Virus record (IMG/VR): IMGVR_UViG_3300012920_000002 | Span: 1-50,903 of that record | Reading direction: 5' to 3' (one strand) | DNA: 50,903 bases | From: a virus | Taxonomy: Duplodnaviria > Caudoviricetes | In this document: in pieces, positions 2,110-38,568 of the stretch | How the letters are laid out: the number at the start of each line of letters is the position of its first letter | How positions within the stretch are numbered: the first letter of the stretch is position 1 | Program-made: the position numbers and the translations under genes | Notes under the pieces: model-generated | What the model was told of the DNA's origin: nothing | The model's database searches: none | What the model saw: only the letters and a program-made list of their open reading frames with translations

Positions 2110-2139
2110 GACGGTCCGGGTAATATTGACCGGACCGTC
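2110..2139. repeat. 30-bp palindromic element, type B (centre GTAATATTGA)
   Basis: GACGGTCCGG GTAATATTGA CCGGACCGTC, overlapping the terL stop codon. Confidence 0.95.
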
Positions 2140-3763
2140 AGCCCTCTGGGAACAGCTCGTAGGCGATGTCCTCACGGTACATGCGGATGCCATAGCGGAG
2201 GGCGTCGACAGCATGGTCTGGCCCCTTGGTCCCCGCCCGCCCCTTCTCGTTGTACTCGTCCTTCAGCGGCTTCCAGATGAGCCCCTCCATCTCTGCGATC
2301 AGGTTCACGCAGCGGGGGTGGATGAGCAGGACCGGCGCCCCATGCTCATCCAGCTGCAGCAGTTCGTACAGCATCTCCAGGCCGGCGACGACAGAGCCCG
2401 GTCCCTTGGTCGCCGGATCGCACTCCACGCCGCACTCCTCCAGGGTGTACCGGCCCTGCGGGTCCTCGGGGTCGGCGGCGACGGCCTCGGCGGGCTGGTC
2501 CTGCTCCCAGATGCCCTTGATCACCTGGGCATGCTGGCGGAGCCGCATCTGGCGCTCGTAGTGCTCCCAGAGGACGATGATGCGCCTCCCCTTGGGGTGG
2601 GCGACCAGATGGAGGTAGGCGAAGGGGTTGGCGGTGCCGAAGTCGAGGCCACCGAACCGGACCCAGCGGTGGAAGTCCGGCGGGGGCTGCCAGTCGGCGG
2701 GAAGGACGTGGATGGCGCGGTCGAAGATGGGGAAGACAGAGCCCCCCAGGGCACCGAACAGGCCGAACATCTTGGCGTCTCGAACGGCCGGGGAGTTGCG
2801 AGAGAGGCGGGCGTCGAGGGAGGCGGTGTCAACGTGGGGGTTGTCGCGGTAGACGATGCGGGTCTGGCTGTGGCCGGGCGCCTGGTCGACGACGAACTCC
2901 TTGTAGACGTAGGTGCGGCCCTCTGGCGTCATCGTCAGCACCGTACGGCCCGACCGGCCCCGTTCCTCGCCCGTGCGCGCCAGCACCTCCCGGTACACCA
3001 TCTCCTCGTGCTGCTCATCCAGCACCACAAGCTGCACCGCCTCACCCTGGTACTTCCGCCACCCCTGGTCGTTCGCCTTGAAGATGATGCGACCACCCGT
3101 CTCCGGCAGCTCCACCTCTGCGAACGCACCCTTCTGCTCCCACCGAATGAGCAGCGCCGCCGGAGGGAGCAGCTCGGCAAAGGCCCCGCGCTGTCGGGCA
3201 ACGTTCAGCTCGTTGGAGAGGGAGGAGTACCAGACGAGGTTGTCCCGGGCCGGCACGAGGTCCGCGGGCAGGCCGTTGAGCTGGAGGAAGCACTGCACCG
3301 CCCAGTGATCGCCACCGTACAGCCACAGCACCGCCAACAGGCACCCCAGGTACGTCTTCCCCGCACGGTTGGAGCCCGTCACCAGCGTGGCAATCTCCCC
3401 CAGTTCCAGTAGCACCGCACGCTGGCTTGTTCGGCAGTCCGCGTGCTTCGGGTCCGTGTTCGTCTGCCGCTTCCCGCACCGGGGGCACGACCACGCGCCA
3501 CGGCCCAGGCGGTCCATCTCCTGGCCAGGGCAGTCATGGCAGTGGGCCGTCCACAGCCGGATGAACGCGATGGGGTGATCCCGTTGCAGGTCCTGCAGCA
3601 CGCCAGCAAGCTGCTCTGCGGCTGCGATGACCGCCTGCTCCCGAGCGTTCGGCGTCCACCCTTCTGGGCGACTCTTCAGCCATCGTTGTACATGGCGGAG
3701 TCGCTGCTGTGCTGCCCGTAGGGTCTCCGGGGACCACTCGACCACCGAGAGCGGCGCCGTCAT
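2138..3763 (-). CDS. terL: Terminase large subunit
   Basis: Walker A TGSNRAGKT, Walker B VVLDEQ, nuclease motifs GGLDFGTANP and DHAVDALRY; ATG 3763 overlaps the terS stop. Confidence 0.93.
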   Translation of the reverse strand: MTAPLSVVEWSPETLRAAQQRLRHVQRWLKSRPEGWTPNAREQAVIAAAEQLAGVLQDLQRDHPIAFIRLWTAHCHDCPGQEMDRLGRGAWSCPRCGKRQTNTDPKHADCRTSQRAVLLELGEIATLVTGSNRAGKTYLGCLLAVLWLYGGDHWAVQCFLQLNGLPADLVPARDNLVWYSSLSNELNVARQRGAFAELLPPAALLIRWEQKGAFAEVELPETGGRIIFKANDQGWRKYQGEAVQLVVLDEQHEEMVYREVLARTGEERGRSGRTVLTMTPEGRTYVYKEFVVDQAPGHSQTRIVYRDNPHVDTASLDARLSRNSPAVRDAKMFGLFGALGGSVFPIFDRAIHVLPADWQPPPDFHRWVRFGGLDFGTANPFAYLHLVAHPKGRRIIVLWEHYERQMRLRQHAQVIKGIWEQDQPAEAVAADPEDPQGRYTLEECGVECDPATKGPGSVVAGLEMLYELLQLDEHGAPVLLIHPRCVNLIAEMEGLIWKPLKDEYNEKGRAGTKGPDHAVDALRYGIRMYREDIAYELFPEG

Positions 3764-4230
3764 GGCTTGTCCCCAACGGAGTCTCCGAGCAGTCCCAGCG
3801 CCGTATCCAGTGCAGAGAGGCTCACTCCCAGGGCCTCCGGGAGGGTGCCAGAGGCTTCCATACCGCCGGACACCTCCACCTTCGTCCGTCTTGGCAGGGC
3901 ACGGTCCAGCAGGATGCCTGCCGCACGGACCCGAGAACTGGCAATGACCTCCGGGTCCTTCATGATCTCCACCAACGTCTCCACCGCAGTCGGCAGGGCT
4001 GCATCGAGCTTCGAGGACACCTGTCGGAGCCTGCGTTGCTGCTCCGCATCGAGAAGCCCGCGGAAGTGTGGCATCGCGAGCCACTTGCTGACGGTGTCCT
4101 CCCGGACCCCAGCAGCCGCGGCGGCCTCCGGGACGGTACCGCCCTTGACCAGCACCATCAGCCCCTTCTGCTGCTTCCCAGTCAGGCGTCGTCGGGAGGG
4201 ATCTTTCTTGATCGGCTTGGGCACGGGCAT
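3760..4230 (-). CDS. terS: Putative terminase small subunit (N-terminal HTH)
   Basis: 156 aa, HTH TVPEAAAAAGVREDTVSKW followed by helical region; immediately upstream of terL. Confidence 0.7.
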   Translation of the reverse strand: MPVPKPIKKDPSRRRLTGKQQKGLMVLVKGGTVPEAAAAAGVREDTVSKWLAMPHFRGLLDAEQQRRLRQVSSKLDAALPTAVETLVEIMKDPEVIASSRVRAAGILLDRALPRRTKVEVSGGMEASGTLPEALGVSLSALDTALGLLGDSVGDKP

Positions 4231-4592
4231 CAGTCGCTTCCCCTGAGTTTGAGTGCGTTGACCTGCTCCACCCAGGCGATCACCTCGCTACCGCGCCACC
4301 GATCGCGCTGGGGGGAGAGTCGAAATGTTGGTGGAGGGAGCCCGTTCCGCGTGCCCTCGCTGATCAGGCGATCCAGGCTGGTCCGTGAGACCCCCAGCGC
4401 GATGCGGACCTGTGCGGTGGTCATCGGGCTGCCCATGTGCAGGCGCTGCAGGGCCTCCAGGCAATCCGGCTCCAGCTCCTGGGGAGGATGTTCGGCGACC
4501 TCCTGGGCTGTGCGCACGCCGAGGGCCTGGAGCGCGGCCAGGATGTCAGCGAGCAGGTCGATCACCCGTCGGGCGAACCAGGCGGGATTCAT
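4230..4592 (-). CDS. AlpA/excisionase-like HTH DNA-binding protein
   Basis: MTTAQVRIALGVSRTSLDRLI...LPPPTFRLS...RWRGSEVIAW pattern. Confidence 0.65.
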   Translation of the reverse strand: MNPAWFARRVIDLLADILAALQALGVRTAQEVAEHPPQELEPDCLEALQRLHMGSPMTTAQVRIALGVSRTSLDRLISEGTRNGLPPPTFRLSPQRDRWRGSEVIAWVEQVNALKLRGSD

Positions 4593-5329
4593 GATGCCTC
4601 CCTGGTGGCTTGGGCGACCCGACGCAGCAAGGCCAGGGCGTCCGGGTCATTGAGGAGGGCGTCGGGGGAGGTCATGGCGATGAGGCGCCAGGCCTCCGGG
4701 CCGGCAGATGGGTCCATCGTGGCCAGCCCGATCAGCTTCGGGGACTGACGGCCCCAGCGGGCGGCGGCGTCGGCCCGGGCCTCGGCCCGCAGCAGGACCG
4801 CCTCCGGGTGGGCTTCGTCGATGCCCTCCAGTTCCGGCTCCGGGATGCGCTGCCCATGCACGACAGCGAGCAGATCAAGGACGCGGTCCAGGGCCAGCTC
4901 CAGACGCTGCGCGAGCAGTTGGGGAGAGGCCACCCCGGCCTGTAGTGCATCCCGGAGTCGAGGGATCTCTCGCTGGTGGTCCCGCTGAACCTTCAGCAGG
5001 GTGCCGTGGTTCTCCGTCGCCGCGTTCAGCTCCGCCCGAATCCACCAGGAGGCATAGGCAGAGAAGGGCACCTCCCGAGATGGATCGAACCGCTGTGCCG
5101 CACGAAACGCACCCAGCCGGGCGATCTGCATCAGGTCAGCCAGTTCCTGGCCCGCCCGCCGACTCCGGGAGAGGCTCCTGATCTGGCTGCCCATCACCGA
5201 CTCCACCGTCAGGGCCAGCGCCCAGCAGAGCCGGTCCACCTCAGCAGGAAGGCCCCGCCGGCGAGCCGTTGCCAGCTGGTCGAGCAGCTCACCCTCGGAT
5301 GGGGTGGAGGGGCAGTGGGCGGGGATCAT
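4589..5329 (-). CDS. Sigma-70-family factor (region 2 clear; region 4 not evident), possible late-gene regulator
   Basis: ELADLMQIARLGAFRAAQRFDPSREVPFSAYASWWIRAEL is a sigma-70 region 2 signature. Confidence 0.8.
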   Translation of the reverse strand: MIPAHCPSTPSEGELLDQLATARRRGLPAEVDRLCWALALTVESVMGSQIRSLSRSRRAGQELADLMQIARLGAFRAAQRFDPSREVPFSAYASWWIRAELNAATENHGTLLKVQRDHQREIPRLRDALQAGVASPQLLAQRLELALDRVLDLLAVVHGQRIPEPELEGIDEAHPEAVLLRAEARADAAARWGRQSPKLIGLATMDPSAGPEAWRLIAMTSPDALLNDPDALALLRRVAQATREAS

Positions 5330-5580
5330 GGTTGCCCCCCAGCAGAAACCACTCCAGGGGGGAGTTCTGGAAGGGTCTGGTGATCAACAGAGGGGGCGAC
5401 AACGGTCCGGGTAAGATTGACCGGACCGTCCGGCAGCGAGCAGATTGCGGAGACGGTGTCCTGGGTGGTCGTCAGTCGCGCAGAGAAGCGGAACAGCACC
5501 AGGGTGACCGCCAGCGCCCAGAGCACCAGGATCCCGAGCAAGCCGAGGAGCAGGACACCGGACAGGGACTCAACCAGCAT
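5326..5580 (-). CDS. Small membrane protein containing an in-frame palindromic element
   Basis: N-terminal hydrophobic helix; DGPVNLTRTV is encoded by the element at 5401; overlaps its neighbours. Confidence 0.6.
   Translation of the reverse strand: MLVESLSGVLLLGLLGILVLWALAVTLVLFRFSARLTTTQDTVSAICSLPDGPVNLTRTVVAPSVDHQTLPELPPGVVSAGGQP
5401..5430. repeat. 30-bp palindromic element, type B (centre GTAAGATTGA)
   Basis: AACGGTCCGG GTAAGATTGA CCGGACCGTC. Confidence 0.95.
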
Positions 5581-5904
5581 CAGGGCCTCCCGGAGCTGGG
5601 GAGAGGTTCTCGGGCAGGACCGTGTGGGTCCAGCGACGGACCATGCCGAGGTGATCGAGGCAGGCGCGCATCCCGTCCGCCGGATGGCAGGCGGTGACGT
5701 CGAGCTGGCAGGTGAAGCCCAGGGGGTGACGGGCCGTGCAAGTCCTCCGGGGTGTGGTGGGATGGCGCGGCCGCTGATCGGGGGTGGTTGCAGACATGGT
5801 GATCTCCAGGAGGGGGTGAGGTCAGAGCAGGGAGAGCTGGCCGATGGGCTCGGTCTCGACGAGATGGAGGACGATCAGGGAGATCAACAGGGCGTAGTGC
5901 TTCA

Positions 5905-6105
5905 TCAGCAGATCTCCGGCTTCAGGGAGACCCGGACGGGCTCCGGGTGGTGGTCGTTCACCCATCGCTGGAGCTGGAGGCGGTGCAGGGTCAGCTCGGC
6001 CTGCCCCGGCCACTGGAACGGGTTCAGGTAGCGGGCCGGGGCACCCGCCAGGAGCAGGCCTGCGCACCCGAGCCACAGGAAGCAGAGTTTCCCGAGGATG
6101 GTCAT
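5905..6105 (-). CDS. Small hypothetical membrane/secreted protein
   Basis: MTILGKLCFLWLGCAGLLLAG; ATGA overlap with the upstream gene. Confidence 0.5.
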   Translation of the reverse strand: MTILGKLCFLWLGCAGLLLAGAPARYLNPFQWPGQAELTLHRLQLQRWVNDHHPEPVRVSLKPEIC

Positions 6106-7488: not shown

Positions 7489-7505
7489 GGGCGGTCTCCG
7501 GGGGT

Positions 7506-7829: not shown

Positions 7830-7843
7830 GATGGCTCCGGGGA

Positions 7844-8953: not shown

Positions 8954-8970
8954 GGCGGATCCGGGATGGG

Positions 8971-9438
8971 TCAGGAGGCGTGCGGGACGGTCCGGCGGAA
9001 TTCCGCCGGACCGTTGTCTGCGGCGTCGGCCGGCAGGGGGCGGGCCGGGCTGATGCGGTTGGCCGGACGGCTGGCCTGGAGGCTGATGGCAGTGATCTCC
9101 TGGAGCCGGGCCCGGATGCGCTCGGCGAGGGCCGGGAGGGTCTCCGCGCGGAGGTGCCCCACGCTGGCCTGGTCACCGGGGGTGATGCTCAGGCGGGCGT
9201 GCCAGCCGTCGTCGGTGGTGCGAACCCGAGCGGCGTAGAAGTCACAGCGACCTGCCGCGCAGATGCGGGTGTCGTCGGTGCCGGGGCGCCAGGTGAAGCC
9301 GGGCAGCAGGATGCAGAGCGCCTCGGCGAGGTCCTGCGCGGTCTCGGGATCCGGGGTGTCAACGGGGACGGGCGCGCAGGGGGTGAGGTGCGCAGTGAGG
9401 GTGTCGGTCATGCGGTACTCCGGGGTGGTGGGGTTCAC
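8971..9438 (-). CDS. Hypothetical protein with C-terminal palindrome-encoded peptide
   Basis: Ends ...DNGPAEFRRTVPHAS; start may be 9438 or 9411. Confidence 0.55.
   Translation of the reverse strand: MNPTTPEYRMTDTLTAHLTPCAPVPVDTPDPETAQDLAEALCILLPGFTWRPGTDDTRICAAGRCDFYAARVRTTDDGWHARLSITPGDQASVGHLRAETLPALAERIRARLQEITAISLQASRPANRISPARPLPADAADNGPAEFRRTVPHAS
8986..9015. repeat. 30-bp palindromic element, type A
   Basis: GACGGTCCGG CGGAATTCCG CCGGACCGTT. Confidence 0.96.
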
Positions 9439-10529
9439 GCTGCGGTCCAGCTGTGCGAGAGGGTCAGCTCGATGGCAGTGATCGCCTCGGCGCGGTGGGG
9501 GTGGTCGTGATCTCCGCGGGCCACGGCGAGCAGCACGTCGAGGGCGTTCCGGTCGATGGCGATGTCGCCCCGGCTGGGGAGGCCCCAGAACGGCCCGGGG
9601 GTGGCTGGCTCGGTGGTGGAGGTGGCGGAGGTCGGGGTTGGCACGGTCCGGCGGAATTCCGCCGGACCGTCGTCGGTGCGATCGGGGGGCGCGGTCTGGG
9701 TGAGATCTGCCGGGTCGTCGACGTCGGGCTCGGGAGCGAGGGTGCGGCGCTCTTCGAGGGCCTCTCGTGCTGCCCGGCGTGCGTCGATGGGGGTGGCGGC
9801 GGCCTGGGCGGCCTGGAGGACGGCCCGCTGATCGGCTTCTGGGAGGCGGGTGGTCTGGACCGCCGTGTCCGTGCTCATCAGGCTGTCGCGGTGGGCATCA
9901 GCGAGCCCGTCGACGCCGTGCCGGAGGATCCGCACCGTGTCCTGCACCCCTGACGGCGAGGTCTGGAACTCTGCGGCGACAACATCCCGGGCCCGGCCGG
10001 CAGGTGGGGTGCTGGTGTCGGCGTCGGTGCCGGGTGTGGGGAGGGCATCGCCGGCCCGCTTCCGGTTGGTCTCGGCGGCGGCGGCCTGGCGGCGGCTGGT
10101 GGCGTAGCCGAGGTCCTGCAGCTCCTCGTAGTACACAGCGGCGGCGTGCTTGCGCTGGTTGGCGGTCAGGTGCCGGCGGCTGAGGTTCTTCGCCTTCACC
10201 CAGCGGAGGGGGTGGATGCCCTGCTTGGCGACCTCTCTGAACCAGATGAAGCGGAGGTACTTGTCGGGGTTGCGGGTGGCGTGGCAGGCCAGCCAGCGGT
10301 TCTGGCCATCGAGGAGACGGACCTTCCAGTCGCCGTCGTGCAGCTCAGCGAGCAGGGTCAGGGGCTCCTGCAGGCCGTTGGCCTCGATGCCTTCCTTGAG
10401 CTCGCGCAGGGGCTTCCCTTCCAGCTGGGGGAAGATCTTGCAGTAGCGGTGGAGCTTCAGGTTGCCGGGGATGGGTGGGGGCCAGGTCAGGCCAGCGGCC
10501 CGCTCGGCGGGGGTCAGGGGTGTGGTCAC
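9435..10529 (-). CDS. ParB/Srx N-terminal-domain protein with HTH
   Basis: LKEGIEANGLQEPL, LLDGQNRWLAC, KNLSRRHLTANQR and GRARDVVAAEFQTS motifs. Confidence 0.8.
   Translation of the reverse strand: MTTPLTPAERAAGLTWPPPIPGNLKLHRYCKIFPQLEGKPLRELKEGIEANGLQEPLTLLAELHDGDWKVRLLDGQNRWLACHATRNPDKYLRFIWFREVAKQGIHPLRWVKAKNLSRRHLTANQRKHAAAVYYEELQDLGYATSRRQAAAAETNRKRAGDALPTPGTDADTSTPPAGRARDVVAAEFQTSPSGVQDTVRILRHGVDGLADAHRDSLMSTDTAVQTTRLPEADQRAVLQAAQAAATPIDARRAAREALEERRTLAPEPDVDDPADLTQTAPPDRTDDGPAEFRRTVPTPTSATSTTEPATPGPFWGLPSRGDIAIDRNALDVLLAVARGDHDHPHRAEAITAIELTLSHSWTAA
9642..9671. repeat. 30-bp palindromic element, type A
   Basis: CACGGTCCGG CGGAATTCCG CCGGACCGTC, in frame in the C-terminal low-complexity linker of the ParB-like protein. 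Confidence 0.96.
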
Positions 10530-11368
10530 GGGTTCACCTCAAGGCCGGGCGCCGCGCCGGAGGCGCGTGCAACGGGTGCGGCTTGTACAGGGGCCGCAGG
10601 GTGGTGGGGATGACCGGAGACGAGCGCCCAGGGGTCGGTGGGGGCGGTGTTGGCGGCGGCATCCCAGGAGATCAGCGCTGCGTCGGAGAAGAGCGCGCTG
10701 AGGAGGTGCTGGAGCGGATCCGGGGTCGGGGCAGCGGACCAGCAGGGAGAGGGGTCGTCGTTGAGGGAGAAGGGAGGGTGGGACGGGAGGGGAGGCGTGG
10801 GGAGAGAAGTACTATGTGAGCATCCCTCTCCCGCGTTGTAGCGTCTGCAGATTTCAAGGCGGGCTTTCCTGATTTCTGACAGATCGACGTTTTCGAGGGG
10901 CAGGAGGTGCATCTGAACGGTCCGCGGCGTGTGCCGATCTCCCCGGTCGACCACGTGGAGGTGCCCCCGCTCCTCCAGCTCCAGGACGATGCGATCTGCG
11001 GTCCGGCGGTCGACTCCCCAGCGCAGCGCCCCGTAGCGGCCTGCCCACAGAAACGAGCCGCCCTTCTCCCGGGCATGACGCCAGAACAGGTCGCAGACGG
11101 CGGCGATCTTCCAGGGCATGCGGAACAGGCGCCGGGCCAGGCGCAGCACCACCGGCGCCGCCCGCCGCACCGCATGGTGCAGGCTGCCGGCGAGCCCAGA
11201 GAGACCTGCCAGGAGGGCGGGGGCGGTGGTCGAGGGGCGGGCTGGGACGGTCCGGCGGAATTCCGCCGGACCGTCGTCTGCACATCCCATGGGGGTGCCG
11301 AGCTGGGCGCGGCGCTGGGCGTGCCGGCACCGGAGGGTCTCGTGAAGGCTGGCGAGGGTGCGGATCAT
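10526..11368 (-). CDS. Winged-HTH protein, possible replication initiator
   Basis: ALRWGVDRRTADRIVLELEERGHL HTH; located between primase and the ParB-like gene; start uncertain. Confidence 0.55.
   Translation of the reverse strand: MIRTLASLHETLRCRHAQRRAQLGTPMGCADDGPAEFRRTVPARPSTTAPALLAGLSGLAGSLHHAVRRAAPVVLRLARRLFRMPWKIAAVCDLFWRHAREKGGSFLWAGRYGALRWGVDRRTADRIVLELEERGHLHVVDRGDRHTPRTVQMHLLPLENVDLSEIRKARLEICRRYNAGEGCSHSTSLPTPPLPSHPPFSLNDDPSPCWSAAPTPDPLQHLLSALFSDAALISWDAAANTAPTDPWALVSGHPHHPAAPVQAAPVARASGAAPGLEVNP
11246..11275. repeat. 30-bp palindromic element, type A (perfect)
   Basis: GACGGTCCGGCGGAATTCCGCCGGACCGTC. Confidence 0.97.
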
Positions 11369-12525: not shown

Positions 12526-14525
12526 CGGTCTGCTCCCTCGGTGGCGGCAAGGGAGGCGCGGACGGTGCGCAGATAGGCGGCATCCTCGGTCGAGCGCGCG
12601 GCGCGTGTGGTGAGCCGGCGCATCCCCTCGGCGAGCACCATCCCGGCGAGGCGGGCATCGGCCAGGGCGCGGTGCAGCGGCGCCGGAGCCTCCAGCCCCC
12701 ACCGCTCAGCCACCTTCGACAGCCCGCCCTTCTGCGGATCGAGGCGCTTGACGAGGGCGCGGATGTCGGTGCCCCAGGTCGGATCGACGGCGTGCTTGTA
12801 GAGCATGCGCCGGTCAAAGGGAACGTTGAACGCAGTGCAGGCCGGATAGCCCCAGCTCTTCATCCACGCCCGGAACTCCGCTGCGACCCGCGCCACTGGT
12901 CGGGCCTGTCGGATCTCGGCCGCCTTGATGCCGTTGATGCGCAGCGCGTTCCGGGCCTCGTTGGTCTGGAGACTGCCGAGGGGGCGGGCGAGCGACTCGA
13001 AGTGGTCGATCTCGTTGCCCCACCGATCCAGCACCACCGCGCCGATCTCGACGACTTCCGCGCGGCCGCTCATGCCGGTGGTCTCCACGTCGACCACAAC
13101 GACGGAGGTGGTGAAGAGCATCGGCGCGGCTGGCGCTGGGGGTGGCTCTGGCAGGGCGGGGGCCGTGACCACCTCGCCGCGGTCTCCGGCACGGTGCAGG
13201 TCGATGCCGACCAGCCCATACCGCACCGGCGCATCCGGCTGATCGGAGGGCCAGCGGAACACCACCAGCTCGGGCGCGGCCGGTGGGGCCATGCGGCCCT
13301 GTTCGCGGGCCCGCTGGTGCAGCCAGCCCTTCCAGCCCCGCTTCCCGGTGGGGGTCAGGGTGCGCTCCGCCCACTCCCGCCACGCCCGCATCCGCAGCGC
13401 GCGTCGGGTGGCCTCATCCGAGCCGCTGGCGTCCTCGACCGGGGCGAACGGGTTCAGGGGGCGGGTGTCGAGGTAGTTGTTGTCCGCCCACACGGCAAGC
13501 CGCCGGTGCAGCTGCTGTCGCTGGTGGGGGGCGAGGTGATGCTCGACCTCGGCATAGAACCGCCAGCGGGCATCGCCGGCCTGGTTGCGCAGCCCGCGCT
13601 GCGTCTCTCGCACCGCCCGGTGAGCGACTGCGCCCAGCTCGGCACGCCACAGTCCCTGCAGCGTGGTGCCGGCGGGGATGACCGCGCCATCGTGGTAGCG
13701 CAGATCGTCCAGCACCCGCCAGACGCCCGGATCGCCCGCTCCCCGGCCGGTGCTGCCTGTGTCGGGGGCGGGGTGGTAGCCCGCGCGGGCCAGCCAGCGC
13801 CGGGGCTGCTGGTCGGTCCAGGCCAGCCGGAGGGCATGCTGGGCGATGATCGCCAGCGCCGGCAGGGTTCGCGCCTGGGGGAGCAGGTAGGCGACATGCG
13901 CGCGGCGCTGGGCGTCCTCGCCGGCGTCCGGGCCGTCTCCCCGGCGCCACACCGCACAGAGCTGCGGCAGCACGGCGAGCAGCCCGCGACCATTGCGGAT
14001 GAGGCCCTCGACCCCCGACCAGGAGGCCTGCAGGGCGTGCCGCTCATCGAGTGCATCGGCCGCAGCCTGCCGGGACTTCGATGCGCTCTCGTCGCGGAGT
14101 TTGGCCTGTTGTTGCTCTCGCTGAATGGCGGCCTGCGCAGCACTGTCCAGACCACCCGCCCCGGCGCGCTCTCGGATCTCAAGGGCCCGCTCCCGGTGCT
14201 GGCGCGCGACGTCCTCTTCCTGAGCAGCGGTTGCACGCGCCTCCCGCTCGGCGGTCTCCAGGTCGGCGAGCTGGGCGCGGGGCTCTCGGGCTATCTCCTG
14301 TGCAGCCTCACGCAGGGTGACGATGATGAGCTTGATGTCCGCGTCCGAGAAGGTCCGGCGGAACACCTCGTCAGGAGCCGGGGTGCTGTCCGCGCGCTCC
14401 ACCACATCGACCGTGACCTGGTCCGCGATGCGGAGCTGGGCGACCTGCTGGGCGCGGGGCTGGCGCAGGGTGGGGGTGGGCCGGCTGTGACGGACCGGGG
14501 CGATGAGCTTGAAGGCTTCCGACAT
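12522..14525 (-). CDS. Large protein with C-terminal DEDDh 3'-5' exonuclease (DnaQ-like)
   Basis: VVDVETTG, AFNVPFDRRML and HRALADA motifs in the last ~200 aa; coiled-coil N-terminus. Confidence 0.8.
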   Translation of the reverse strand: MSEAFKLIAPVRHSRPTPTLRQPRAQQVAQLRIADQVTVDVVERADSTPAPDEVFRRTFSDADIKLIIVTLREAAQEIAREPRAQLADLETAEREARATAAQEEDVARQHRERALEIRERAGAGGLDSAAQAAIQREQQQAKLRDESASKSRQAAADALDERHALQASWSGVEGLIRNGRGLLAVLPQLCAVWRRGDGPDAGEDAQRRAHVAYLLPQARTLPALAIIAQHALRLAWTDQQPRRWLARAGYHPAPDTGSTGRGAGDPGVWRVLDDLRYHDGAVIPAGTTLQGLWRAELGAVAHRAVRETQRGLRNQAGDARWRFYAEVEHHLAPHQRQQLHRRLAVWADNNYLDTRPLNPFAPVEDASGSDEATRRALRMRAWREWAERTLTPTGKRGWKGWLHQRAREQGRMAPPAAPELVVFRWPSDQPDAPVRYGLVGIDLHRAGDRGEVVTAPALPEPPPAPAAPMLFTTSVVVVDVETTGMSGRAEVVEIGAVVLDRWGNEIDHFESLARPLGSLQTNEARNALRINGIKAAEIRQARPVARVAAEFRAWMKSWGYPACTAFNVPFDRRMLYKHAVDPTWGTDIRALVKRLDPQKGGLSKVAERWGLEAPAPLHRALADARLAGMVLAEGMRRLTTRAARSTEDAAYLRTVRASLAATEGADR

Positions 14526-14971
14526 CAGGCACCCCCGACCGACGCGGCGGTGACCTCAAGGAGCCAGAGGCCGGCATCGCTGGGGTAGACCTCAGCGGGT
14601 GTGCTGATGCTTCCCCAGGAATGGAGACGCTTGAGTGCGCGGTTGAAGCCACCGTCCGTGGCGTAGACCATCAGTGCGTCCGCCAAATCCTGCTTGGTGT
14701 GTGGGCACTTTTTGAGCGTGAGAAAGATGCGGTGCTCGGTGTCGTTCTCCAGGCTGGGGCTCGGCTTCGCCCATGGGTGCAGCCGGTAGAGGCGAGGCTG
14801 GAGGAGTCCCCGCCGACTGAGCTGGTGCAGCGCCGCTGCGGCCTTCTTCTTGTCCAGCTTGAGGTCGTGGGCGAGCTGGGCGGCGGTGCGCTCTCCGGGC
14901 TCCTCGGCGACTGCGGCCAGCAGCTTGCGGGAGAGTGGAGTGATCGCAGGGATGCGCGCAGGGGCGTTCAT
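14525..14971 (-). CDS. Tandem winged-HTH protein
   Basis: TAAQLAHDLKLDKKKAAAALHQLSRRGLL and TKQDLADAL...LKRLHSWG. Confidence 0.65.
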   Translation of the reverse strand: MNAPARIPAITPLSRKLLAAVAEEPGERTAAQLAHDLKLDKKKAAAALHQLSRRGLLQPRLYRLHPWAKPSPSLENDTEHRIFLTLKKCPHTKQDLADALMVYATDGGFNRALKRLHSWGSISTPAEVYPSDAGLWLLEVTAASVGGA

Positions 14972-16395
14972 GCCGTCTCCGGGGTCCAGGAGGTCAGGAG
15001 CAGCTCCGGGGCGGGCTGCCGGTTGTCGCCGTCGCAGCTCATGCCGCCGGAGCGGGTCAGCGCGGTGGCGTGCCAGTCGTCGCCGTAGATCTCGCGGGTC
15101 AGCGGTCCGTTGGAGCCGGAGATCATCACCAGGGCACCGCGCTGCCGGGCCGCCCGCAGCCCATCCACCAGCACACGGTGGTCAGCAGGCCCGAACCCCG
15201 CTGCGGTGTAGGCCGTGAAGGTGTCCATCCCCTCCAGCAGCGGCAGGTAGGGCGGATCGGCGTAGACGAGATCGCCGGCCTGGGCCTCGAGGAGCGTCGT
15301 GGTGAAGTCGACCGGGGACAGCGAGGCACCCCGCAGTGCGCGGTGGTTCCGCATCAGCAGCGCCTGGCGCTCGGGGTTCAGGACATGCGTACTGGTCCGG
15401 TCCTTCGCCAGCGGCCCGTTGAACCGGCCCTTCTTGTTGACCCGGTAGAGCCCCTGGAAGCAGACGCTGTTCAGGTAGAGGAACCGTGCGGCCTGCTCGC
15501 GCAGCTCGCGACCGGTCATCTCCAGCGGAGAGAAGGGCAGCCGGTCGTTGAAGTTCCGCCGGATCTCCTCGTAGTGCTCGGGGCCGTGGAGCCGGGCATG
15601 CTGATCGAGGTTCGCCAGCAGGTTCTGGGGCGTGCTCTGCAACACCCGCCAGCTGTTGATCAGGGCGTGGCTGGCATCGGCCAGGATGGCGCGGGGCTCG
15701 CCGGTGAGCCGGCCGGCCTCGTGCAGGGCGAAGAAGAAGGCGCCGCCACCAAGGAAGGGAATGATGAGCCGACCCCGCCAGCCCACCGGCAGCAGCCGCA
15801 GCATCGTCGGCACGAGCTGCCGCTTCCCACCCGCCCATCGGAGGTGCGGACCACACGCCAGGGCGCGCTGGGACGGTCCGGCGGAATTCCGCCGGACCGT
15901 TGTCTGCGCCTCTCCGGTGGACGGTCCGGCGGAATTCCGCCGGACCGTCGTCGGGGGCACATCGAGCTGCCAGAGCCGAACGTGAACGCCGGGCAGCTCG
16001 CCGGAGGCGGCGTACCACTTCTCCACGTGGACCGAGGCGATCTCACAGTCGTCGTAGATGATGAGCCCGCTCTCGCCGGGCCCGCCACCGTCGAAGGCGT
16101 CCTCGATGCTCTTGAGGACGTTGTCGGCGTCCGGCTTGACCAGGTGCCGCACCCGGCCGCCCTCGCCGAGATGCTTGGGACGGGGGAACAGGAGCAGACA
16201 GTCGAGCCGCAGCGCGGTGCCCTTGGGCAGGGGGATGGCGAGGCCCTGCTCGCGGGCCGCTGCCTTGAGGATGTGCTGTGCACGAGCCTTCCAGGCCTGG
16301 GTGGCCTTCGGCGTGAAGCGGCCGTTTCGGGTGACTCGGACGCGCTGCTTCGTCTGCGGCTTCTCCGGGATGAACGCGCTGAGGAGATGCCTCAC
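14968..16395 (-). CDS. RusA-like Holliday-junction resolvase fused to a Dam-family (D12 class) DNA adenine methyltransferase
   Basis: N-terminal KPDADNVLKSIEDA...DDCEI (RusA); C-terminal RWAGGKRQL, PFLGGGA, RFLYLN, YADPPY; no stop between the domains. Confidence 0.85.
   Translation of the reverse strand: MRHLLSAFIPEKPQTKQRVRVTRNGRFTPKATQAWKARAQHILKAAAREQGLAIPLPKGTALRLDCLLLFPRPKHLGEGGRVRHLVKPDADNVLKSIEDAFDGGGPGESGLIIYDDCEIASVHVEKWYAASGELPGVHVRLWQLDVPPTTVRRNSAGPSTGEAQTTVRRNSAGPSQRALACGPHLRWAGGKRQLVPTMLRLLPVGWRGRLIIPFLGGGAFFFALHEAGRLTGEPRAILADASHALINSWRVLQSTPQNLLANLDQHARLHGPEHYEEIRRNFNDRLPFSPLEMTGRELREQAARFLYLNSVCFQGLYRVNKKGRFNGPLAKDRTSTHVLNPERQALLMRNHRALRGASLSPVDFTTTLLEAQAGDLVYADPPYLPLLEGMDTFTAYTAAGFGPADHRVLVDGLRAARQRGALVMISGSNGPLTREIYGDDWHATALTRSGGMSCDGDNRQPAPELLLTSWTPETA
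15872..15901. repeat. 30-bp palindromic element, type A
   Basis: First of two tandem copies (48-bp period) in the RusA-Dam linker. Confidence 0.96.
15920..15949. repeat. 30-bp palindromic element, type A (perfect)
   Basis: Second tandem copy in the RusA-Dam linker. Confidence 0.97.
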
Positions 16396-18217: not shown

Positions 18218-18222
18218 CACGG

Positions 18223-18489: not shown

Positions 18490-18501
18490 GTTCAGTCCCT
18501 C

Positions 18502-18579: not shown

Positions 18580-18599
18580 AGGCGGGCGAAGCTCCGGCC

Positions 18600-21467: not shown

Positions 21468-23330
21468 ATGAAGGTCGACCATGCAGGCCAGCGCCGCACG
21501 CTGGCGGAGGCCCTGCAGGCCGAAGAGGACTGTCACGAGCTGCTCACCGCATGGCCGGAGGCTGTGCTGTACCTGGACACGCCCCAAAAGGGCTCGACGG
21601 AGAAGACCCGAGGACCGCGTAGCGAGCGCACCCCGGAGGCCCTGCGTATCGCCGAGGCACTCTGCCAGTCCAGCGAGGCCCGGAAGATGCATCAGGATGC
21701 CCTGACCCTCTGGCGTCGGGCGGAGTCGCTGCGCTGGAGCCTTCTGCCGGATGTTGATCGCCTGATCTGGCGGCAAGCCACCACCATCGCCCAGCTCCCA
21801 CAGGTTCGGTCCGAGGCGGAGGACCTCGTGCAGGAGGGGCGGCTGGGTTTCCTGCGTGCCTGTCGGCGCTTCGACCCCCAGGCCGGAACGAAGCTGCTCA
21901 CCTATGCCAAATGGTGGATCCGGGCTGCGATGACCCGGCACGTTGATACCGCTGGACGAGTCATCCGCCAGCCCAGTGGAATGACCGAGGAAATCCGGCT
22001 GATCGACAAGGCCAGCCGAGAGCTGGTGCGCTGTGGGCTGCCGGTCAACGCTGCGACGCTCTCCGAGGTGACCAAGTTCCTCCCCGAGCGCGTGCAGGCG
22101 CTCCTGGAGTTCCGCCAACCCCTCAGTCTCGACGGTGCCATCGCCGAAGGCGAAGACCGCAGCCTGCTCGACATGTTCGCCGGCCTGGACGCTGACGACC
22201 TGGACCGCGAGGTCGACACGGCCCTTCAGGCAGGGCGGCTGAAGGAGCTGATCGACGGGCTGGATGAGCGCAGCGCCGCGATCGTCGAGTTCCGAGCAGG
22301 GCTCGTCGACGGTGTCGACCACTCCCTGGACGAAGCCGGTGAGCTGTACGGCATCTCCCGCGAACGGGCGCGCCAGATCGAGCGAGCCGCCCACGAACGC
22401 CTCCGCGAACAACTCTCCCAGCCCCGCACCCAGAACCCCCACCACTCCCCGGAGATTGTCATGGATCCCAATGCCCGATGCCCCATCCACCCAGACCGGC
22501 AGGCGACCAATGTCGGCATCTGTCGCGACTGTGAGCGAGCAGTCTCGAAGGCGGCCCGCCGCTACAAGACGCTCGGCAGAGTCCCGCAACCGGGCTGCAT
22601 CGCTGCACGGGCCATCCTCGCGGTCGACCTGGGCGGAAAGCGGCGCGTCTGGTTCGAGGAGGCGAAGACGCTGAAGGAGCTGCTGCAGGCGCAGACGACG
22701 GTCCGGCCAGAATTACCCGGACCGTCCCAGCCGTCTCCTGCTCCCACCCATCAGGACCTCCCCGGCAACGACTGCGACGACACCGACGCAGACGGCGACG
22801 CCTCTGTCGAGGAGGCCGAAAGCGTCGATGCTGTCGCCGCTCTCTGCGGCCCCATGACGACCGCTGAGGAGTCCATCGGGATTTCCTTAGAAAATATACT
22901 CCCGCCAGGAACGACCGAGGAACCCTCCCTTTCCCTGGCTGTTGATGAGGGAGGGGACAACGACTGCGACGACGCCGACGCGGACGGCGACGGCTACACA
23001 GAGCTGCAGCCTCTCCCCCGCGTCCGACTGACAATCCAGATCGAGGCCGCTGCCGCCGAGCTGGCGGCGCTGCAGACCGCCGTTCAGCAGAAGGCTGCCC
23101 AGCTGGAGCGGCTGCAGGACGATCTCCGGCGGGAGACCTTGCGCCAGATCGTCAGCATCATCCCTGGCGCTGTCGCAGCGCAGGAGGTCCTGGCCACGAT
23201 GCTCCCGGCAGACCTTCCTGAGGCAGAGCGGGAGCGACTGCTGGCTGCGTTCGATGCCAGCCGATGGGACGAGACCCTTGAAGCCCTGCGGGATGAGGTC
23301 CAGGCCAGCGCGCAGCGGGGTGCAGCATGA
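21468..23330 (+). CDS. RpoD/SigA-like sigma-70 factor with long C-terminal extension
   Basis: Region 2 EDLVQEGRLGFLRACRRFDP...TYAKWWIR, region 3 PLSLD, region 4 SLDEAGELYGISRERARQIE; about 290 extra aa follow. Confidence 0.88.
   Translation: MKVDHAGQRRTLAEALQAEEDCHELLTAWPEAVLYLDTPQKGSTEKTRGPRSERTPEALRIAEALCQSSEARKMHQDALTLWRRAESLRWSLLPDVDRLIWRQATTIAQLPQVRSEAEDLVQEGRLGFLRACRRFDPQAGTKLLTYAKWWIRAAMTRHVDTAGRVIRQPSGMTEEIRLIDKASRELVRCGLPVNAATLSEVTKFLPERVQALLEFRQPLSLDGAIAEGEDRSLLDMFAGLDADDLDREVDTALQAGRLKELIDGLDERSAAIVEFRAGLVDGVDHSLDEAGELYGISRERARQIERAAHERLREQLSQPRTQNPHHSPEIVMDPNARCPIHPDRQATNVGICRDCERAVSKAARRYKTLGRVPQPGCIAARAILAVDLGGKRRVWFEEAKTLKELLQAQTTVRPELPGPSQPSPAPTHQDLPGNDCDDTDADGDASVEEAESVDAVAALCGPMTTAEESIGISLENILPPGTTEEPSLSLAVDEGGDNDCDDADADGDGYTELQPLPRVRLTIQIEAAAAELAALQTAVQQKAAQLERLQDDLRRETLRQIVSIIPGAVAAQEVLATMLPADLPEAERERLLAAFDASRWDETLEALRDEVQASAQRGAA
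22697..22726. repeat. 30-bp palindromic element, type B (centre CCAGAATTAC)
   Basis: GACGGTCCGG CCAGAATTAC CCGGACCGTC, in frame (TTVRPELPGPS). Confidence 0.93.
22766..22992 (+). repeat. 35-bp direct repeat pair encoding NDCDD(T/A)DADGD
   Basis: 22766-22800 versus 22958-22992, 33 of 35 bases identical. Confidence 0.85.
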
Positions 23331-28876: not shown

Positions 28877-28906
28877 GACGGTCCGGCGGAATTCCGCCGG
28901 ACCGTT
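28877..28906. repeat. 30-bp palindromic element, type A
   Basis: Intergenic, between convergent int and the 28951-29214 gene. Confidence 0.96.
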
Positions 28907-35265: not shown

Positions 35266-37326
35266 TCAGCCGATGCAGATGATCTCGCAGTTCGCCTCGC
35301 TGGAGAGGACGATCAGCTCGATGGTGTTGGCATCGACGCTGCGGGTGTCCATCTCCAGATCCACACCGGCTGAGTCGTAGACCTTCACCAGGGGGAACGA
35401 CTCTCCGAGGCCGTGAACCACCTGCAGGGGCACACCAGCCACCAGGCTGATGGTCGCGCGGAACTTGCTCGGCTTTGTGTCGACGTCGGACCGCAGGTCA
35501 TCCAGCTCGGTCTGGACCGCAGGGGCCAGCATCGCGCGCTCGACCTGGCCCGCGCTGATCTGGAAGGTGCCGGTCGCAGCGTCGTAGCTGATGCCGGGGC
35601 CTGCGGAGAGCTCGTTGCGGATGTTGGCGCTGGTCAGGGTGTAGGTGCCTGCCGCCGGGTCGTAGGCGCCCAGGCCAGGAGCAGAGAAGCTGTTGCGGAC
35701 CCAACCCTGGTCACCGGAGATCTCGCCGGTGGCCGCGTTGTAGCTGATGCCGGCGCCGCCGGTGAGCTGGGCACGAACATCCCCGCCGGTCAGGGTGTAG
35801 GTGCCGGCGGTCTCATCGTAGATGCCGAGACCGGGCGCGCTGATCTGGCTGCGGACGTCGGCCTGCGAGAGGGTGTAGACGCCGGTGACGGCGTTGTAGG
35901 TGCCGAGCCCACCGATACCCCAGCGGCTGCGGACCCATGCCTCGTCACCGGAGATGGCGCCGGAGGCCGGGTCGTAGCTGATGCCGGTTCCGGCGCCGAA
36001 GAGGCCACGGATGGCGCCAGCATCGCCGGACATCTCGCCGGTCGCAGCGTCGTAGGCGAGCAGGGCACCCGCGCCGATCTGCTGGCGGCTCCAGGCGGTG
36101 TTGCCGGAGATCTCTCCGGTCGCAGAGTCGTAGTCGATGCCAGCGCCGCCGGAGATCTGGGCGCGGACGTCGGCGCTGGTCAGGTTGTAGGCACCGGAGG
36201 CCGCATCGTAGGCACCGAGGCCGGGGGCGCTGAAGAGGCCGCGGATGGCACCAGCGTCACCGGCCATCTCGCCGGAGGCAGCGTCGTAGGTCAGCAGGGA
36301 GCCGGCCGAGACGCGGCCCCGGACCCAGTCCTGATCGACGGAGAAGGCGCCATCGTTGTAGACCGCGCCGGATCCGGCGGAGAACAGCGCCTTGATGTTC
36401 GCGGCGTTGCCGACGATCTCACCGTTGGCGGGGTTGAAGTCCACCAGGTCGCCAGGGGCGGAGAGCTGGTTGCGGACATCGCTGGCGGTCAGGGTGTAGG
36501 TGCCAGCAGCGGCGTCGTAGGTGCCGAGGTCCGGTGCCGAGAACAGCCCCTTGATGGCGGCCTCGTCAGCGGCCATCACGCCGGTGGTGTTGTCGTAGCT
36601 CATCAGCGCGCCGGCGCTGACCTGCTGGCGGGTCCAGGCCGCGTCACCCGAGATGGCGCCGGTGGCAGCGTTGTAGTTGACGCCGTTGGAGCCGGAGAGC
36701 AGCGCGCGGACGTCCGCCTCGGCCACGCCGAAGACGCCGGAAGCATCGTCGTAGGTGGCGATGCCAGAGGCCGAGAACTGCTGCCGGGCATAGGCCACGT
36801 CAAGCGAGAGCGCGCCAGAGGTGGAATTGTAGACGACGCCGTCGACGCCGGAGAGCAGCGCGCGGATCTGGCTGGCGGTCAGATCCGGCCCGTCCACCAG
36901 AAACCAGTCGGTCTCATCGCCGGCAGTGCCACCGTTGTGCATGAAGAACCGGGTCTGGCCGTCCTCGTGGTCGCGCATGACCAGGACGTCGGACATCTGG
37001 TGATCGCCCGGGACGTAGCCCGCGTCACCGACGAAGGCGGCGAGGTTGGCGAAGCCGGCGCCGGCACCATCGCCGTCGACGTGCAGCCGGGTGATCGCCA
37101 GGGCCTCGATGGAGAGCTGGCGGTTCCGGCCGTCCGGGTCGGCGGTGATGGTCAGGTACGCGGAGCTGTTGGGGTGGACAGAGAGGTGACGCTCATCGAC
37201 ATAGGTCTTGGCCTGCCCCCAGGCGGCGGGCATGTTGTCGAGGATGGCGTCCTGAATGTTGCGGATCGAGCCGGCGCTGCCGCGGAACTCGATGCCAGAG
37301 ACGTACTGCTTGTGGCCTGCGGTCAT
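35266..37326 (-). CDS. Repeat-rich tail fibre/whisker protein
   Basis: 686 aa; many ~25-aa repeats (G-I/L-S/A-Y-D/N-A-A-T-G...V/I-R). Confidence 0.7.
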   Translation of the reverse strand: MTAGHKQYVSGIEFRGSAGSIRNIQDAILDNMPAAWGQAKTYVDERHLSVHPNSSAYLTITADPDGRNRQLSIEALAITRLHVDGDGAGAGFANLAAFVGDAGYVPGDHQMSDVLVMRDHEDGQTRFFMHNGGTAGDETDWFLVDGPDLTASQIRALLSGVDGVVYNSTSGALSLDVAYARQQFSASGIATYDDASGVFGVAEADVRALLSGSNGVNYNAATGAISGDAAWTRQQVSAGALMSYDNTTGVMAADEAAIKGLFSAPDLGTYDAAAGTYTLTASDVRNQLSAPGDLVDFNPANGEIVGNAANIKALFSAGSGAVYNDGAFSVDQDWVRGRVSAGSLLTYDAASGEMAGDAGAIRGLFSAPGLGAYDAASGAYNLTSADVRAQISGGAGIDYDSATGEISGNTAWSRQQIGAGALLAYDAATGEMSGDAGAIRGLFGAGTGISYDPASGAISGDEAWVRSRWGIGGLGTYNAVTGVYTLSQADVRSQISAPGLGIYDETAGTYTLTGGDVRAQLTGGAGISYNAATGEISGDQGWVRNSFSAPGLGAYDPAAGTYTLTSANIRNELSAGPGISYDAATGTFQISAGQVERAMLAPAVQTELDDLRSDVDTKPSKFRATISLVAGVPLQVVHGLGESFPLVKVYDSAGVDLEMDTRSVDANTIELIVLSSEANCEIICIG

Positions 37327-37729: not shown

Positions 37730-38120
37730 GGGTCACCCCAAGGTCCGCGATCGCGCGCCCCTGAATCAGCCGGTAGGGCTCGGTCCAGGAGGCTCCAGCA
37801 GGGGGATAGAGCAGGACGTCATAGAAGCCCCCGCGCGGCGGCAGGCGCTGGGCGGCGACCCGGGTGACCAGGAAGACGACATCACCGGTCGCAGACAGGG
37901 TGACCGTCCCGTCACCGTCGTTGCCAGTCTCCCCGGAGCCGATGTCGATCAGCGGGGGGAGGGCCTCTCGACCAGGTCGGGGTGCCTCGCCTCGGATCTG
38001 CATCCGCGCTGTCCACCCCGTCAGATCAACGGCAACACCCTCGGCGTTCTCCCACCGAAACGGGAGCCGGTTCCCGGCGTTCTGTTGCAGTCGAATGTGA
38101 CGGGTCGGGGTGGACGGCAT
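37722..38120 (-). CDS. Putative tail/baseplate adaptor protein
   Basis: VDLTGWTARMQIR...YDVLL...LIQG pattern typical of phage fibre-attachment proteins. Confidence 0.65.
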   Translation of the reverse strand: MPSTPTRHIRLQQNAGNRLPFRWENAEGVAVDLTGWTARMQIRGEAPRPGREALPPLIDIGSGETGNDGDGTVTLSATGDVVFLVTRVAAQRLPPRGGFYDVLLYPPAGASWTEPYRLIQGRAIADLGVTRG

Positions 38121-38236
38121 GGGCGGCGGCGGTCTCCTGCAGGACTCATCCGAGGAGATAGGCGACCGTTCTGAGGGCCCTGGCCTCCTGGGGCCTGCTG
38201 GGGTCCGCTGGGGCGCGCTCGCGGCAGGGCACAGAC

Positions 38237-38266
38237 GACGGTCCGGGTAAGATTGACCGGACCGTT
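38237..38266. repeat. 30-bp palindromic element, type B (centre GTAAGATTGA)
   Basis: GACGGTCCGG GTAAGATTGA CCGGACCGTT. Confidence 0.95.
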
Positions 38267-38287
38267 TACCCCCACCCGGAGACCACC

Positions 38288-38449
38288 ATGACCCCCGAAG
38301 AAGAAAAGCGCCTTGCCGAGCTGGAGGAGCGCGTGGAGCAGCAGGACAAGCGGATCAAGAACCTGGAGGCCCACATTGAGGCTCTGATCAAAACGCTGCA
38401 CAACGCGCCCAAGATGATCGAAGATGCCTTCAAGGGTGGGCCCTTCTGA
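38288..38449 (+). CDS. 53-aa coiled-coil protein (absent from the ORF track)
   Basis: MTPEEEKRLAELEERVEQQDKRIKNLEAHIEALIKTLHNAPKMIEDAFKGGPF; CCGGAG RBS. Confidence 0.7.
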   Translation: MTPEEEKRLAELEERVEQQDKRIKNLEAHIEALIKTLHNAPKMIEDAFKGGPF

Positions 38450-38458
38450 GGGTTCCAC

Positions 38459-38488
38459 GACGGTCCGGCGGAATTCCGCCGGACCGTC
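38459..38488. repeat. 30-bp palindromic element, type A (perfect)
   Basis: GACGGTCCGGCGGAATTCCGCCGGACCGTC. Confidence 0.97.
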
Positions 38489-38538
38489 GTCTGTGCCCAG
38501 CTCGCCACCCCCACCACAATGCGAGCGGCTATGCTCGG

Positions 38539-38568
38539 GACGCTCCGGGCAACATTACCCGGACCGTG
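38539..38568. repeat. Degenerate 30-bp palindromic element, type B
   Basis: GACGCTCCGG GCAACATTAC CCGGACCGTG, 8 bp before the lipoprotein start. Confidence 0.8.

Follow-up and report, generated by a model that had tools for sequence, protein, structure and literature searches.

How did a 30-bp palindrome come to occupy 13 positions in a phage genome, several of them in frame inside genes, and what keeps its arms invariant? The question is raised by the IMG/VR record IMGVR_UViG_3300012920_000002 (Duplodnaviria; Caudoviricetes), which is complete as a virus record (50,903 bp, completeness estimated at 100%) and carries a direct terminal repeat of 123 bp. It was analysed over its full length and is referred to below as the window. 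The sequence data suggest that a palindromic unit has spread through this genome by copying. It may have been kept invariant through use of its arms as half-sites by a DNA-binding protein of the phage.

Dispersed invariant palindromes are known in a few phage groups and their role there is unsolved. The element considered here provides a long site, with 28 invariant bases and two centre classes, and the genome that carries it encodes a small number of candidate binders. Some copies are translated into protein linkers, a route by which a short repeat could build an inter-domain linker and possibly fuse two genes. A practical hazard also arises, in that metagenome contigs of the phage break at the copies. 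New here are the unit of about 40 bp with its asymmetric flank, the absence of decayed copies, the persistence of the element in marine contigs and a variant of a RusA-Dam fusion protein that differs by one unit.

Sequence and anatomy of the palindrome family

A previous description made from the letters alone (the sequence-only reading) had listed 13 copies of the pattern GACGGTCCGG-N10-CCGGACCGTC. All of them were matched (6 exact, 6 with one mismatch and 1 with two), and no occurrence of the 30-bp pattern was obtained in 100 dinucleotide-preserving shuffles. The invariant 28-bp core ACGGTCCGG-N10-CCGGACCGT is present 12 times exactly and once with one mismatch, the reversed control pattern giving 0 matches. 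The half-site CCGGACCGT occurs 26 times against 0.97 expected; 25 of these occurrences lie within the 13 elements and a single orphan is located at 49762. No copy is found in the window before 2110 or beyond 38568, so that the region from 39 to 50 kb is free of the element, as had been claimed.

The copies fall into two types with the same arms and a different 10-bp centre. The fully palindromic centre CGGAATTCCG defines type A and is present in eight copies, as originally counted. The five copies of type B display A/T-rich asymmetric centres: GTAATATTGA, GTAAGATTGA twice, CCAGAATTAC and GCAACATTAC. Their asymmetry was thus correctly reported, and the label 'GTAA-type' given to all five applies to CCAGAATTAC and GCAACATTAC on the opposite strand only. 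Every copy, whatever its type, has an A/T-rich centre of 4-6 bp between GC-rich arms, and the arm centres are 20 bp apart, i.e. on the same helix face. Each third of type A is dyad-like (CGGTCCG, CGGAATTCCG and CGGACCG). Its 30-bp core is a multiple of three and, in line with the earlier claim that it contains no stop, all six of its frames are open. The hexamer GAATTC is observed 13 times in the window against 3.6 expected, 8 of the 13 being within elements.

The similarity extends beyond the palindrome itself. A GTC(T/G)G(C/T) flank accompanies 11 of the 13 copies on one side only, and GG is present on the other side in most. The repeated unit therefore reaches past the symmetric part and measures about 40 bp, with the consensus (C)AGAC-GACGGTCCGG-N10-CCGGACCGTC-CC(A)G. 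As a convergent origin of 13 identical 28-mers sharing a one-sided flank is not credible, we infer that the unit was copied. When the 18 arm bases are scored at the 10-bp spacing, 12 copies have 0 mismatches, one copy has 1 and none has 2-3. Matches with four or more arm mismatches fit the first-order Markov expectation (at four, 2 observed against 1.23 expected). The arms are in this respect all or none, and the window therefore contains no decayed relics.

Positions of the copies in the phage genome

The genome has a GC content of about 69%, and a gene map based on codon usage places 65 genes on 91.3% of the window, leaving 8.7% non-coding. Proteins were scanned against Pfam (53 proteins, then 30 at E-values up to 0.5), PHROGs (43) and NCBIfam (14). 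The Pfam and PHROG matches include packaging and structural genes (terminase, portal), a C5 methyltransferase and a tyrosine integrase. Regulatory genes comprise two sigma-70-family proteins, two XRE-type helix-turn-helix (HTH) proteins and MarR-like and LexA-like winged-helix proteins. Those assigned to replication encode a primase-like zinc-ribbon protein, a DnaQ-like exonuclease fusion, a ParB/Srx-like protein and the RusA-Dam fusion. Judged from this gene set, the virus is a temperate tailed phage.

Seven copies lie wholly within called genes, in frame, and six in the non-coding 8.7%, an enrichment with P = 4e-4 when copy 5401 is counted as intergenic. The 13 copies are as follows (ORF, open reading frame; + and -, strand of the gene).

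2110..2139: type B, centre GTAATATTGA; intergenic, between the genes for the terminase large subunit and the portal
5401..5430: type B, centre GTAAGATTGA; 72 bp upstream of the sigma-like gene 4589-5329 (-)
8986..9015: type A; NGPAEFRRTV, four codons ahead of the stop of ORF 8971-9438 (-), a protein without a matched region
9642..9671: type A; DGPAEFRRTV, residues 287-296 of the ParB/Srx-like protein, past its matched region (25-271)
11246..11275: type A; DGPAEFRRTV, residues 32-41 of ORF 10526-11368 (-), which has no matched region and an uncertain start codon
12137..12166: type A; TTVRRNSAGPS, residues 120-130 of the primase-like protein, past the zinc-ribbon match (18-84)
15872..15901: type A; TTVRRNSAGPS, residues 165-175 of the RusA-Dam protein, inter-domain linker
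15920..15949: type A; TTVRRNSAGPS, residues 149-159 of the RusA-Dam protein, inter-domain linker
22697..22726: type B, centre CCAGAATTAC; TTVRPELPGPS, residues 410-420 of a sigma-70-family protein
28877..28906: type A; intergenic, between the convergent integrase gene (stop at 28851) and ORF 28951-29214 (-)
38237..38266: type B, centre GTAAGATTGA; divergent intergenic region, 21 bp upstream of the ATG at 38288
38459..38488: type A; intergenic, 9 bp past the stop of ORF 38288-38449 (+)
38539..38568: type B, centre GCAACATTAC; the most diverged copy (two arm mismatches), abutting the GGAGG ribosome-binding site of ORF 38577-38987 (+)

Two limits apply to this list. The TGA stop of the terminase gene (2138-3601, -) takes the first two bases of element 2110. 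Copy 5401 is intergenic in our own gene map, and other callers place it near the 3' end of a doubtful 84-aa ORF (5326-5580, -).

The intragenic copies are read as DGPAEFRRTV three times and as TTVRRNSAGPS or its type B form four times, which bears out the claim of two reading frames; it is therefore the DNA that is conserved and not the peptide. On either side of copies 9642, 11246, 12137, 15872 and 22697, codon log-odds in the ORF frame are positive, and each of these copies is therefore read through as part of one ORF. Intragenic copies had also been described as confined to linkers and tails. Every one of them indeed lies outside the recognised domains when compared to the Pfam and PHROG domain coordinates. 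In the sigma-70-family protein, for example, region 4 spans residues 262-314 and the match extends up to 323, the element being located beyond both. Six copies cluster within 7 kb around the ParB-like gene, and three (38237, 38459 and 38539) lie within 330 bp, in or beside a divergent intergenic region.

Several copies stand at positions where an RNA hairpin could act, by protecting mRNA 3' ends, by RNase III processing, by translational control at ribosome-binding sites or by factor-dependent termination. Copies are found just past the stops of the terminase and integrase genes, another lies four codons short of a stop and one touches a ribosome-binding site, and in 7 of 7 intragenic copies the flank has the same orientation relative to the gene. 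As six of these seven are on one strand, this orientation amounts to about two independent observations. The predicted folds are stable: type A forms a 13-bp stem with an AAUU loop (-30.4 kcal/mol, z = -6.2) and type B forms 10-bp stems (-18.5 to -23.9 kcal/mol). The RNA of the tandem pair in the RusA-Dam gene (15866-15956, -) is predicted to form a mutual 29-bp duplex (-67.5 kcal/mol), of sufficient length for an RNase III substrate. Such a role is nevertheless improbable. At the seven copies in coding sequence, cleavage or termination would cut essential replication proteins short. The arms are invariant without covariation, the outermost pair varying uncompensated (A/C, C/C, G/G). The predicted GC-rich hairpin is without the T-run of an intrinsic terminator after any copy. 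A terminator scan of 37900-38800 and 5200-6000 flagged 0 of 4 copies, and no Rfam family was matched.

A sigma-70 promoter scan around four copies gave 0 predictions. An ECF-type (extracytoplasmic function sigma factor) promoter reading of the motif (GGAAT...CGTC) was rejected by eye, the spacing being 10-14 nt and not 16-18. Close to copy 28877, direct repeats of the GCCCACACC type are present at 28537-28582 and 28790-28824, at the 3' end of the integrase gene and before the element; these may be arm-type sites of attP. The phage carries its two sigma-70-family genes at 4589-5329 (-) and 21468-23330 (+). The C-terminal extension of the sigma-70-family protein that holds element 22697 contains, downstream of it, the acidic repeat NDCDDxDADGD twice (22766-22803 and 22958-22995).

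Elsewhere in the window, three methyltransferase-like genes encode the Dam domain fused to RusA, a 703-aa C5 methyltransferase and a 380-aa weakly D12-like protein. The hexamer TCCGGA is observed 2 times against about 22 expected under a first-order Markov model, which suggests restriction-site avoidance. The top coding score belongs to a 686-aa protein (35266-37326, -) in which a 78/156-nt period recurs as seven diverged copies; it is probably a tail fibre or comparable protein built from repeats. A tRNA scan of the window returned 0 genes.

Persistence, variation and occurrence elsewhere

Phage DNA is present in the marine or seawater metagenomes of six studies, among which one sample may be the source of the phage record itself. 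Contigs from four runs of four studies were compared to positions 1800-21799, with 32 of 194 contig pieces and 40 of 218 substitutions listed. The contigs bridging 2110 (X2 and X9), 5401 (X2, X6 and X7) and 8986 (X6) all carry the element. Since contigs from other metagenomes span copies, an assembly artefact, which the sequence-only reading had raised against itself, is rejected. Many contigs do end at type A copies, as is to be expected of repeats. None of the nine indels listed for the four-run contigs is an element loss, and no empty-site allele was seen in contigs or protein variants, the sole polymorphism being one versus two tandem units. The element peptide is kept in variants of ORF 8971-9438 (97% identity, 13 contigs), of the ParB-like protein (95%) and of the primase-like protein (99%). 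Several truncated protein variants appear to end in the translation of a sequencing adapter.

Two further differences were observed among the marine runs. In three of the four, contigs cover the region 17800-21100 with its CI/Cro-like genes sparsely or not at all, and a 349-bp deletion (7829-8179) is common to two. Both point to mosaic module differences within the population.

The variable site is the RusA-Dam gene.

14968..16395 (-): RusA-Dam fusion, 475 aa; RusA at residues 10-140 and Dam at 187-439 (Pfam, PHROG)

The linker between the two domains consists almost wholly of two elements and their spacer. The 475-aa form is found on four contigs. A 459-aa variant (cluster representative P0155), present on 2 contigs of which the longest is 20,698 bp, is identical at 459 of 459 aligned residues and is without exactly TTVRRNSAGPSTGEAQ. 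The missing stretch corresponds to one element plus the 18-bp spacer, i.e. 48 bp. Such a difference could result from a gain of one unit or from recombination between the copies; the shorter form could also be an assembly collapse of the tandem pair. Among the best 120 Dam homologues listed, RusA and Dam are joined in only 1, which is the phage's own cluster, so the fusion is probably young on the evidence of these alignments.

These observations would be compatible with the element being a DNA structure or recombination site, prone to form cruciforms, used for recombination, module exchange or gene fusion and possibly processed by RusA. The A/T-rich centre between GC-rich arms would suit such a use. 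The RusA-Dam gene holds two copies, its variant differs by exactly one unit as recombination would give, and its linker, in a fusion that is probably young, is made of elements. Deletions between palindromes also occur in the Cluster O mycobacteriophages, according to the available part of the published account (PMC4351075). The module boundaries of this phage (the 7829-8179 deletion and the uncovered 17.8-21.1 kb) are not at elements, and most pairwise recombinations would remove essential genes. With the possible assembly collapse added, this explanation is very improbable.

The motif was not found as a multi-copy family in any virus or genome searched, within a thin sampling. In IMG/VR, the arm pattern gave one unrelated match only and the inner 18-mer 3 unrelated hairpins only, and the type A 24-mer gave 0 matches in metagenome contigs. 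The arm pattern is present at no fewer than 120 loci (at least 120) in genome contigs. Among the 120 loci listed, 80 are one orthologous Streptomyces-type intergenic hairpin, 40 are scattered hairpins and 0 contain the phage centre. Six genomes searched individually gave one match each. At one mismatch or less, matches were obtained in 15 of 401 sampled Actinomycetota genomes (at most 2 per genome; the tally takes in the unpublished genome G569, on which nothing else here depends) and in 7 of 401 sampled Alphaproteobacteria genomes (at most 1 per genome), in both cases without the phage centre. No phage protein matched the 600-bp genome loci by tblastn, and Rfam at gathering thresholds gave 0 matches for the window and four loci. 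The sequence-only reading had also considered an already described, abundant host repeat of the REP (repetitive extragenic palindrome) class; none was found among the genome loci listed or in the genomes sampled. Open-access papers and bioRxiv contained no description of the motif, nor of a 30-bp in-frame palindrome family in a phage.

The Streptomyces-type hairpin (e.g. loci L070 and L092) has both 9-nt arms and the 10-nt spacing of the phage element, with a different, covarying centre, and occurs once per genome. The match is probably due to chance, the hairpin itself being conserved in sequence. An attP reading of copy 28877 by comparison with this conserved hairpin was rejected, as the central 10 bp differ.

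The search for relatives of the phage was equally negative. Megablast of 8 kb of the window against the phage collection gave no match, and the best terminase identity by tblastn was only 27%. Relative-locus searches in IMG/VR found none with the RusA-Dam protein or with P0002, and none in metagenome contigs with P0002. This last protein was the nearest match (41% identity) in an exhaustive search with the protein encoded at 12522-14525. A word-based protein search with the ParB-like protein returned the self-match only. The clean-insertion test found no close relative in the phage collection or IMG/VR. The portal protein had no match at an E-value of 1e-10 in 301 genomes of the genus Streptomyces, and its atlas search gave no clue to the host.

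These searches bear on a selfish origin, in which a miniature palindrome similar to a REP or to a MITE (a miniature transposable element with inverted repeats) would have no phage function, would owe its copies to recombination or to an enzyme, either the host's or an unrecognised one, and would survive at harmless positions. The copies are identical and have an asymmetric head and tail in common. They are stop-free and in frame in linkers and tails, in two frames; the end of one gives a stop codon, and a head-to-tail pair at one site has a copy number of 1 or 2. Such traits match those of bacterial REPs, including intragenic REPs in replication and repair genes, as described in the available portion of one survey (PMC3733652). 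With its 30 bp and 10-13-bp predicted stems of -18.5 to -30.4 kcal/mol, the element has the dimensions of a REP unit, a GC-rich stem-loop of 20-40 bp. Its one-sided flank is (C)AGAC/GTCTG, and CGTC, rather than forming a head, is the paired stem end on both sides. No transposase, HUH protein or REP-associated tyrosine transposase (RAYT) was found among the phage proteins scanned. The copies are not flanked by a direct repeat that would indicate target-site duplication, as in a MITE, and lack an empty-site allele among the variants seen. The lack of decayed copies, the negative searches of IMG/VR, metagenome contigs and sampled genomes, and a density of 13 copies in 50.8 kb, high for a passenger in a compact phage genome, all speak against a purely selfish element, which we consider rather unlikely.

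Candidate binding proteins and comparison with known systems

A sequence-specific function is favoured by four observations: the absence of decayed copies, the persistence of the element across variants, the invariance of the arms across two centre classes, and the concentration of copies near the ParB-like gene and in a control region. The sequence-only reading had left the choice between a network of binding sites and a self-spreading element. The copying part of this proposal stands, owing to the asymmetric flank beyond the palindrome, and the support for function is indirect; the two readings are compatible with each other. The explanation tentatively preferred here, possible while short of probable, joins them. 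A palindromic cassette of about 40 bp would have been copied to 13 places in the phage genome. Its copies would persist only where harmless, either between genes or as in-frame parts of disordered protein linkers and tails. The two arms of 9-10 bp, on the same helix face, would be the half-sites of a dimeric or higher-order DNA-binding protein of the phage and would owe their invariance to selection for this use. The ParB/Srx-like protein may load or nucleate at the copies, like KorB or like Noc, a ParB-family protein with dispersed binding sites. MarR-like, LexA-like (30183-30599) and other winged-helix proteins are alternative candidates. The DNA-binding proteins of the phage also include the two XRE-type proteins (18223-18507 and 18564-19016) and an Xis-like protein (4230-4592).

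9435..10529 (-): ParB/Srx-like protein, 364 aa, lead candidate binder; within the densest copy cluster and carrying one copy
14525..14971 (-): MarR-like winged-helix protein, 148 aa, alternative candidate binder; Pfam MarR_2 at an E-value of 1.7e-5, below the curated cut-off

The ParB/Srx-like protein matches PHROG 4715, 'ParB-like partition protein' (E-value 5.8e-7), and phrog_21315 (6.9e-15). Its atlas feature matches fall in clusters of PF02195 (ParB_N) in 11 of 30 cases, and a weak PDB match to ParB covers the GxxRxxA region (E-value 0.41). Pfam and NCBIfam gave no match. A single-sequence AlphaFold2 model was unusable (predicted local confidence, pLDDT, 43; predicted template modelling score, pTM, 0.23).

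A number of points weigh against this explanation. The ParB-like assignment comes from PHROG and language-model matches only, and no ParA-type ATPase is present among the Pfam or PHROG matches. Known ParB sites are contiguous palindromes of 13-16 bp, unlike the 10-N10-10 layout observed here. The CI/Cro-like intergenic interval that separates the two XRE-type HTH genes (18.2-18.6 kb) is free of copies, and only background-level matches with 5 mismatches were obtained there. All 28 core bases are the same in the eight type A copies, even at centre positions for which a spacer has no need, which fits recent copying at least as well as selection. The evidence for conservation among variants is thin, with few contig rows listed and frequent contig ends at type A copies. 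Of the 24 residues immediately upstream of the element, 6 have changed in the ParB-like variant, against 0 of 12 in the element plus flank, a contrast that is not significant alone. Finally, a variant of ORF 8971-9438 on a 694-bp contig has its first arm codon changed from N to P.

A broader and quite unlikely version would give a phage-autonomous, coding-compatible cassette two jobs. It would be the landing site of a ParB-fold or other phage protein by which the genome is organised or silenced. It would also be a source of disordered linkers, ready for use and free of stops, through which neighbouring genes can be fused (RusA-Dam being an example) and whose copy number varies in the population. 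Should this hold, cis-regulatory sites and protein linkers would co-evolve from a single mobile unit.

The copied cassette with arms as putative half-sites can be compared to several known systems. The iterons of the lambda origin within gene O are protein-binding repeats placed where this replication gene encodes an inter-domain linker, in one local cluster. The CIRCE operator of HrcA has a 9-N9-9 layout, is a promoter site and works both as DNA and as RNA. Neither is a dispersed family of 13 copies.

The sequence-only reading had likened the copies to the stoperators of mycobacteriophage L5. This analogy is weak, the present sites being palindromic and absent from the CI/Cro-like intergenic region. 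In the available text on the stoperators of Cluster A mycobacteriophages and R4-like Streptomyces phages (PMC9283540, PMC10276819), as in this phage, the sites are many and dispersed with an orientation bias relative to transcription. Each of those stoperators is a short asymmetric site between genes at which the repressor binds as a monomer, and the operator of the early lytic promoter is among them; seven copies of the phage element, by contrast, are intragenic and none is at the CI/Cro-like switch.

The OB operators of KorB in plasmid RK2 (PMC11790492) and the SopB sites IR1-4 of N15 (PMC7205306) provide a functional analogy only, as far as the consulted portions of these papers describe them. 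They too are palindromes scattered over a mobile genome, some of them intragenic or distal to promoters. They are bound by a ParB-fold protein encoded nearby; in the window, the ParB/Srx-like gene lies in the densest copy cluster. In contrast to these systems, the arms are split by 10 bp, no ParA was found and an integrase is present.

Bacterial REPs, including CGTC-tagged ones, and the Rickettsia palindromic elements RPE-4 and RPE-6 were surveyed by Di Nocera et al. 2013 (PMC3733652). In the part of this survey available, REPs resemble the phage element as small GC-rich palindromes with an unpaired head and tail, located mostly after ORFs or between convergent ORFs. Both can donate stop codons, have in-frame copies often in replication and repair genes, and form dimers. 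REPs are chromosomal, number tens to thousands of copies and have stems of 8-9 bp with a GTAG/CGTC head. The phage family, as far as searched, is confined to a genome of 51 kb, has stems of 10-13 bp and comes with no RAYT among the proteins scanned.

The closest precedent, judging from the available part of its description, is the family of 17-bp palindromes of the Cluster O mycobacteriophages, whose function is also unsolved (PMC4351075). According to the same text, the repeat TGTTCGGNNNCCGAACA is a 17-bp dyad (7-N3-7), and the 34 copies in phage Corndog comprise 14 intergenic ones, 10 at the 5' ends of ORFs and 10 within ORFs. The two families differ in size, 30 bp (10-N10-10) against 17 bp, in number, 13 copies against more than 30, and in sequence, which is unrelated to TGTTCGGNNNCCGAACA. 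An asymmetric flank, in-frame stop-free copies in linkers and tails and a fusion linker are features of the present phage that are not reported for Cluster O in that portion of the account. What the two have in common is that the palindromes are dispersed and phage-specific, that their arms are invariant around a variable A/T-rich centre, that indels occur between copies and that they are absent from the host genomes checked (Cluster O) or from the other genomes searched (this phage). For the Cluster O palindromes, the authors of that description suggest dimeric DNA-binding proteins.

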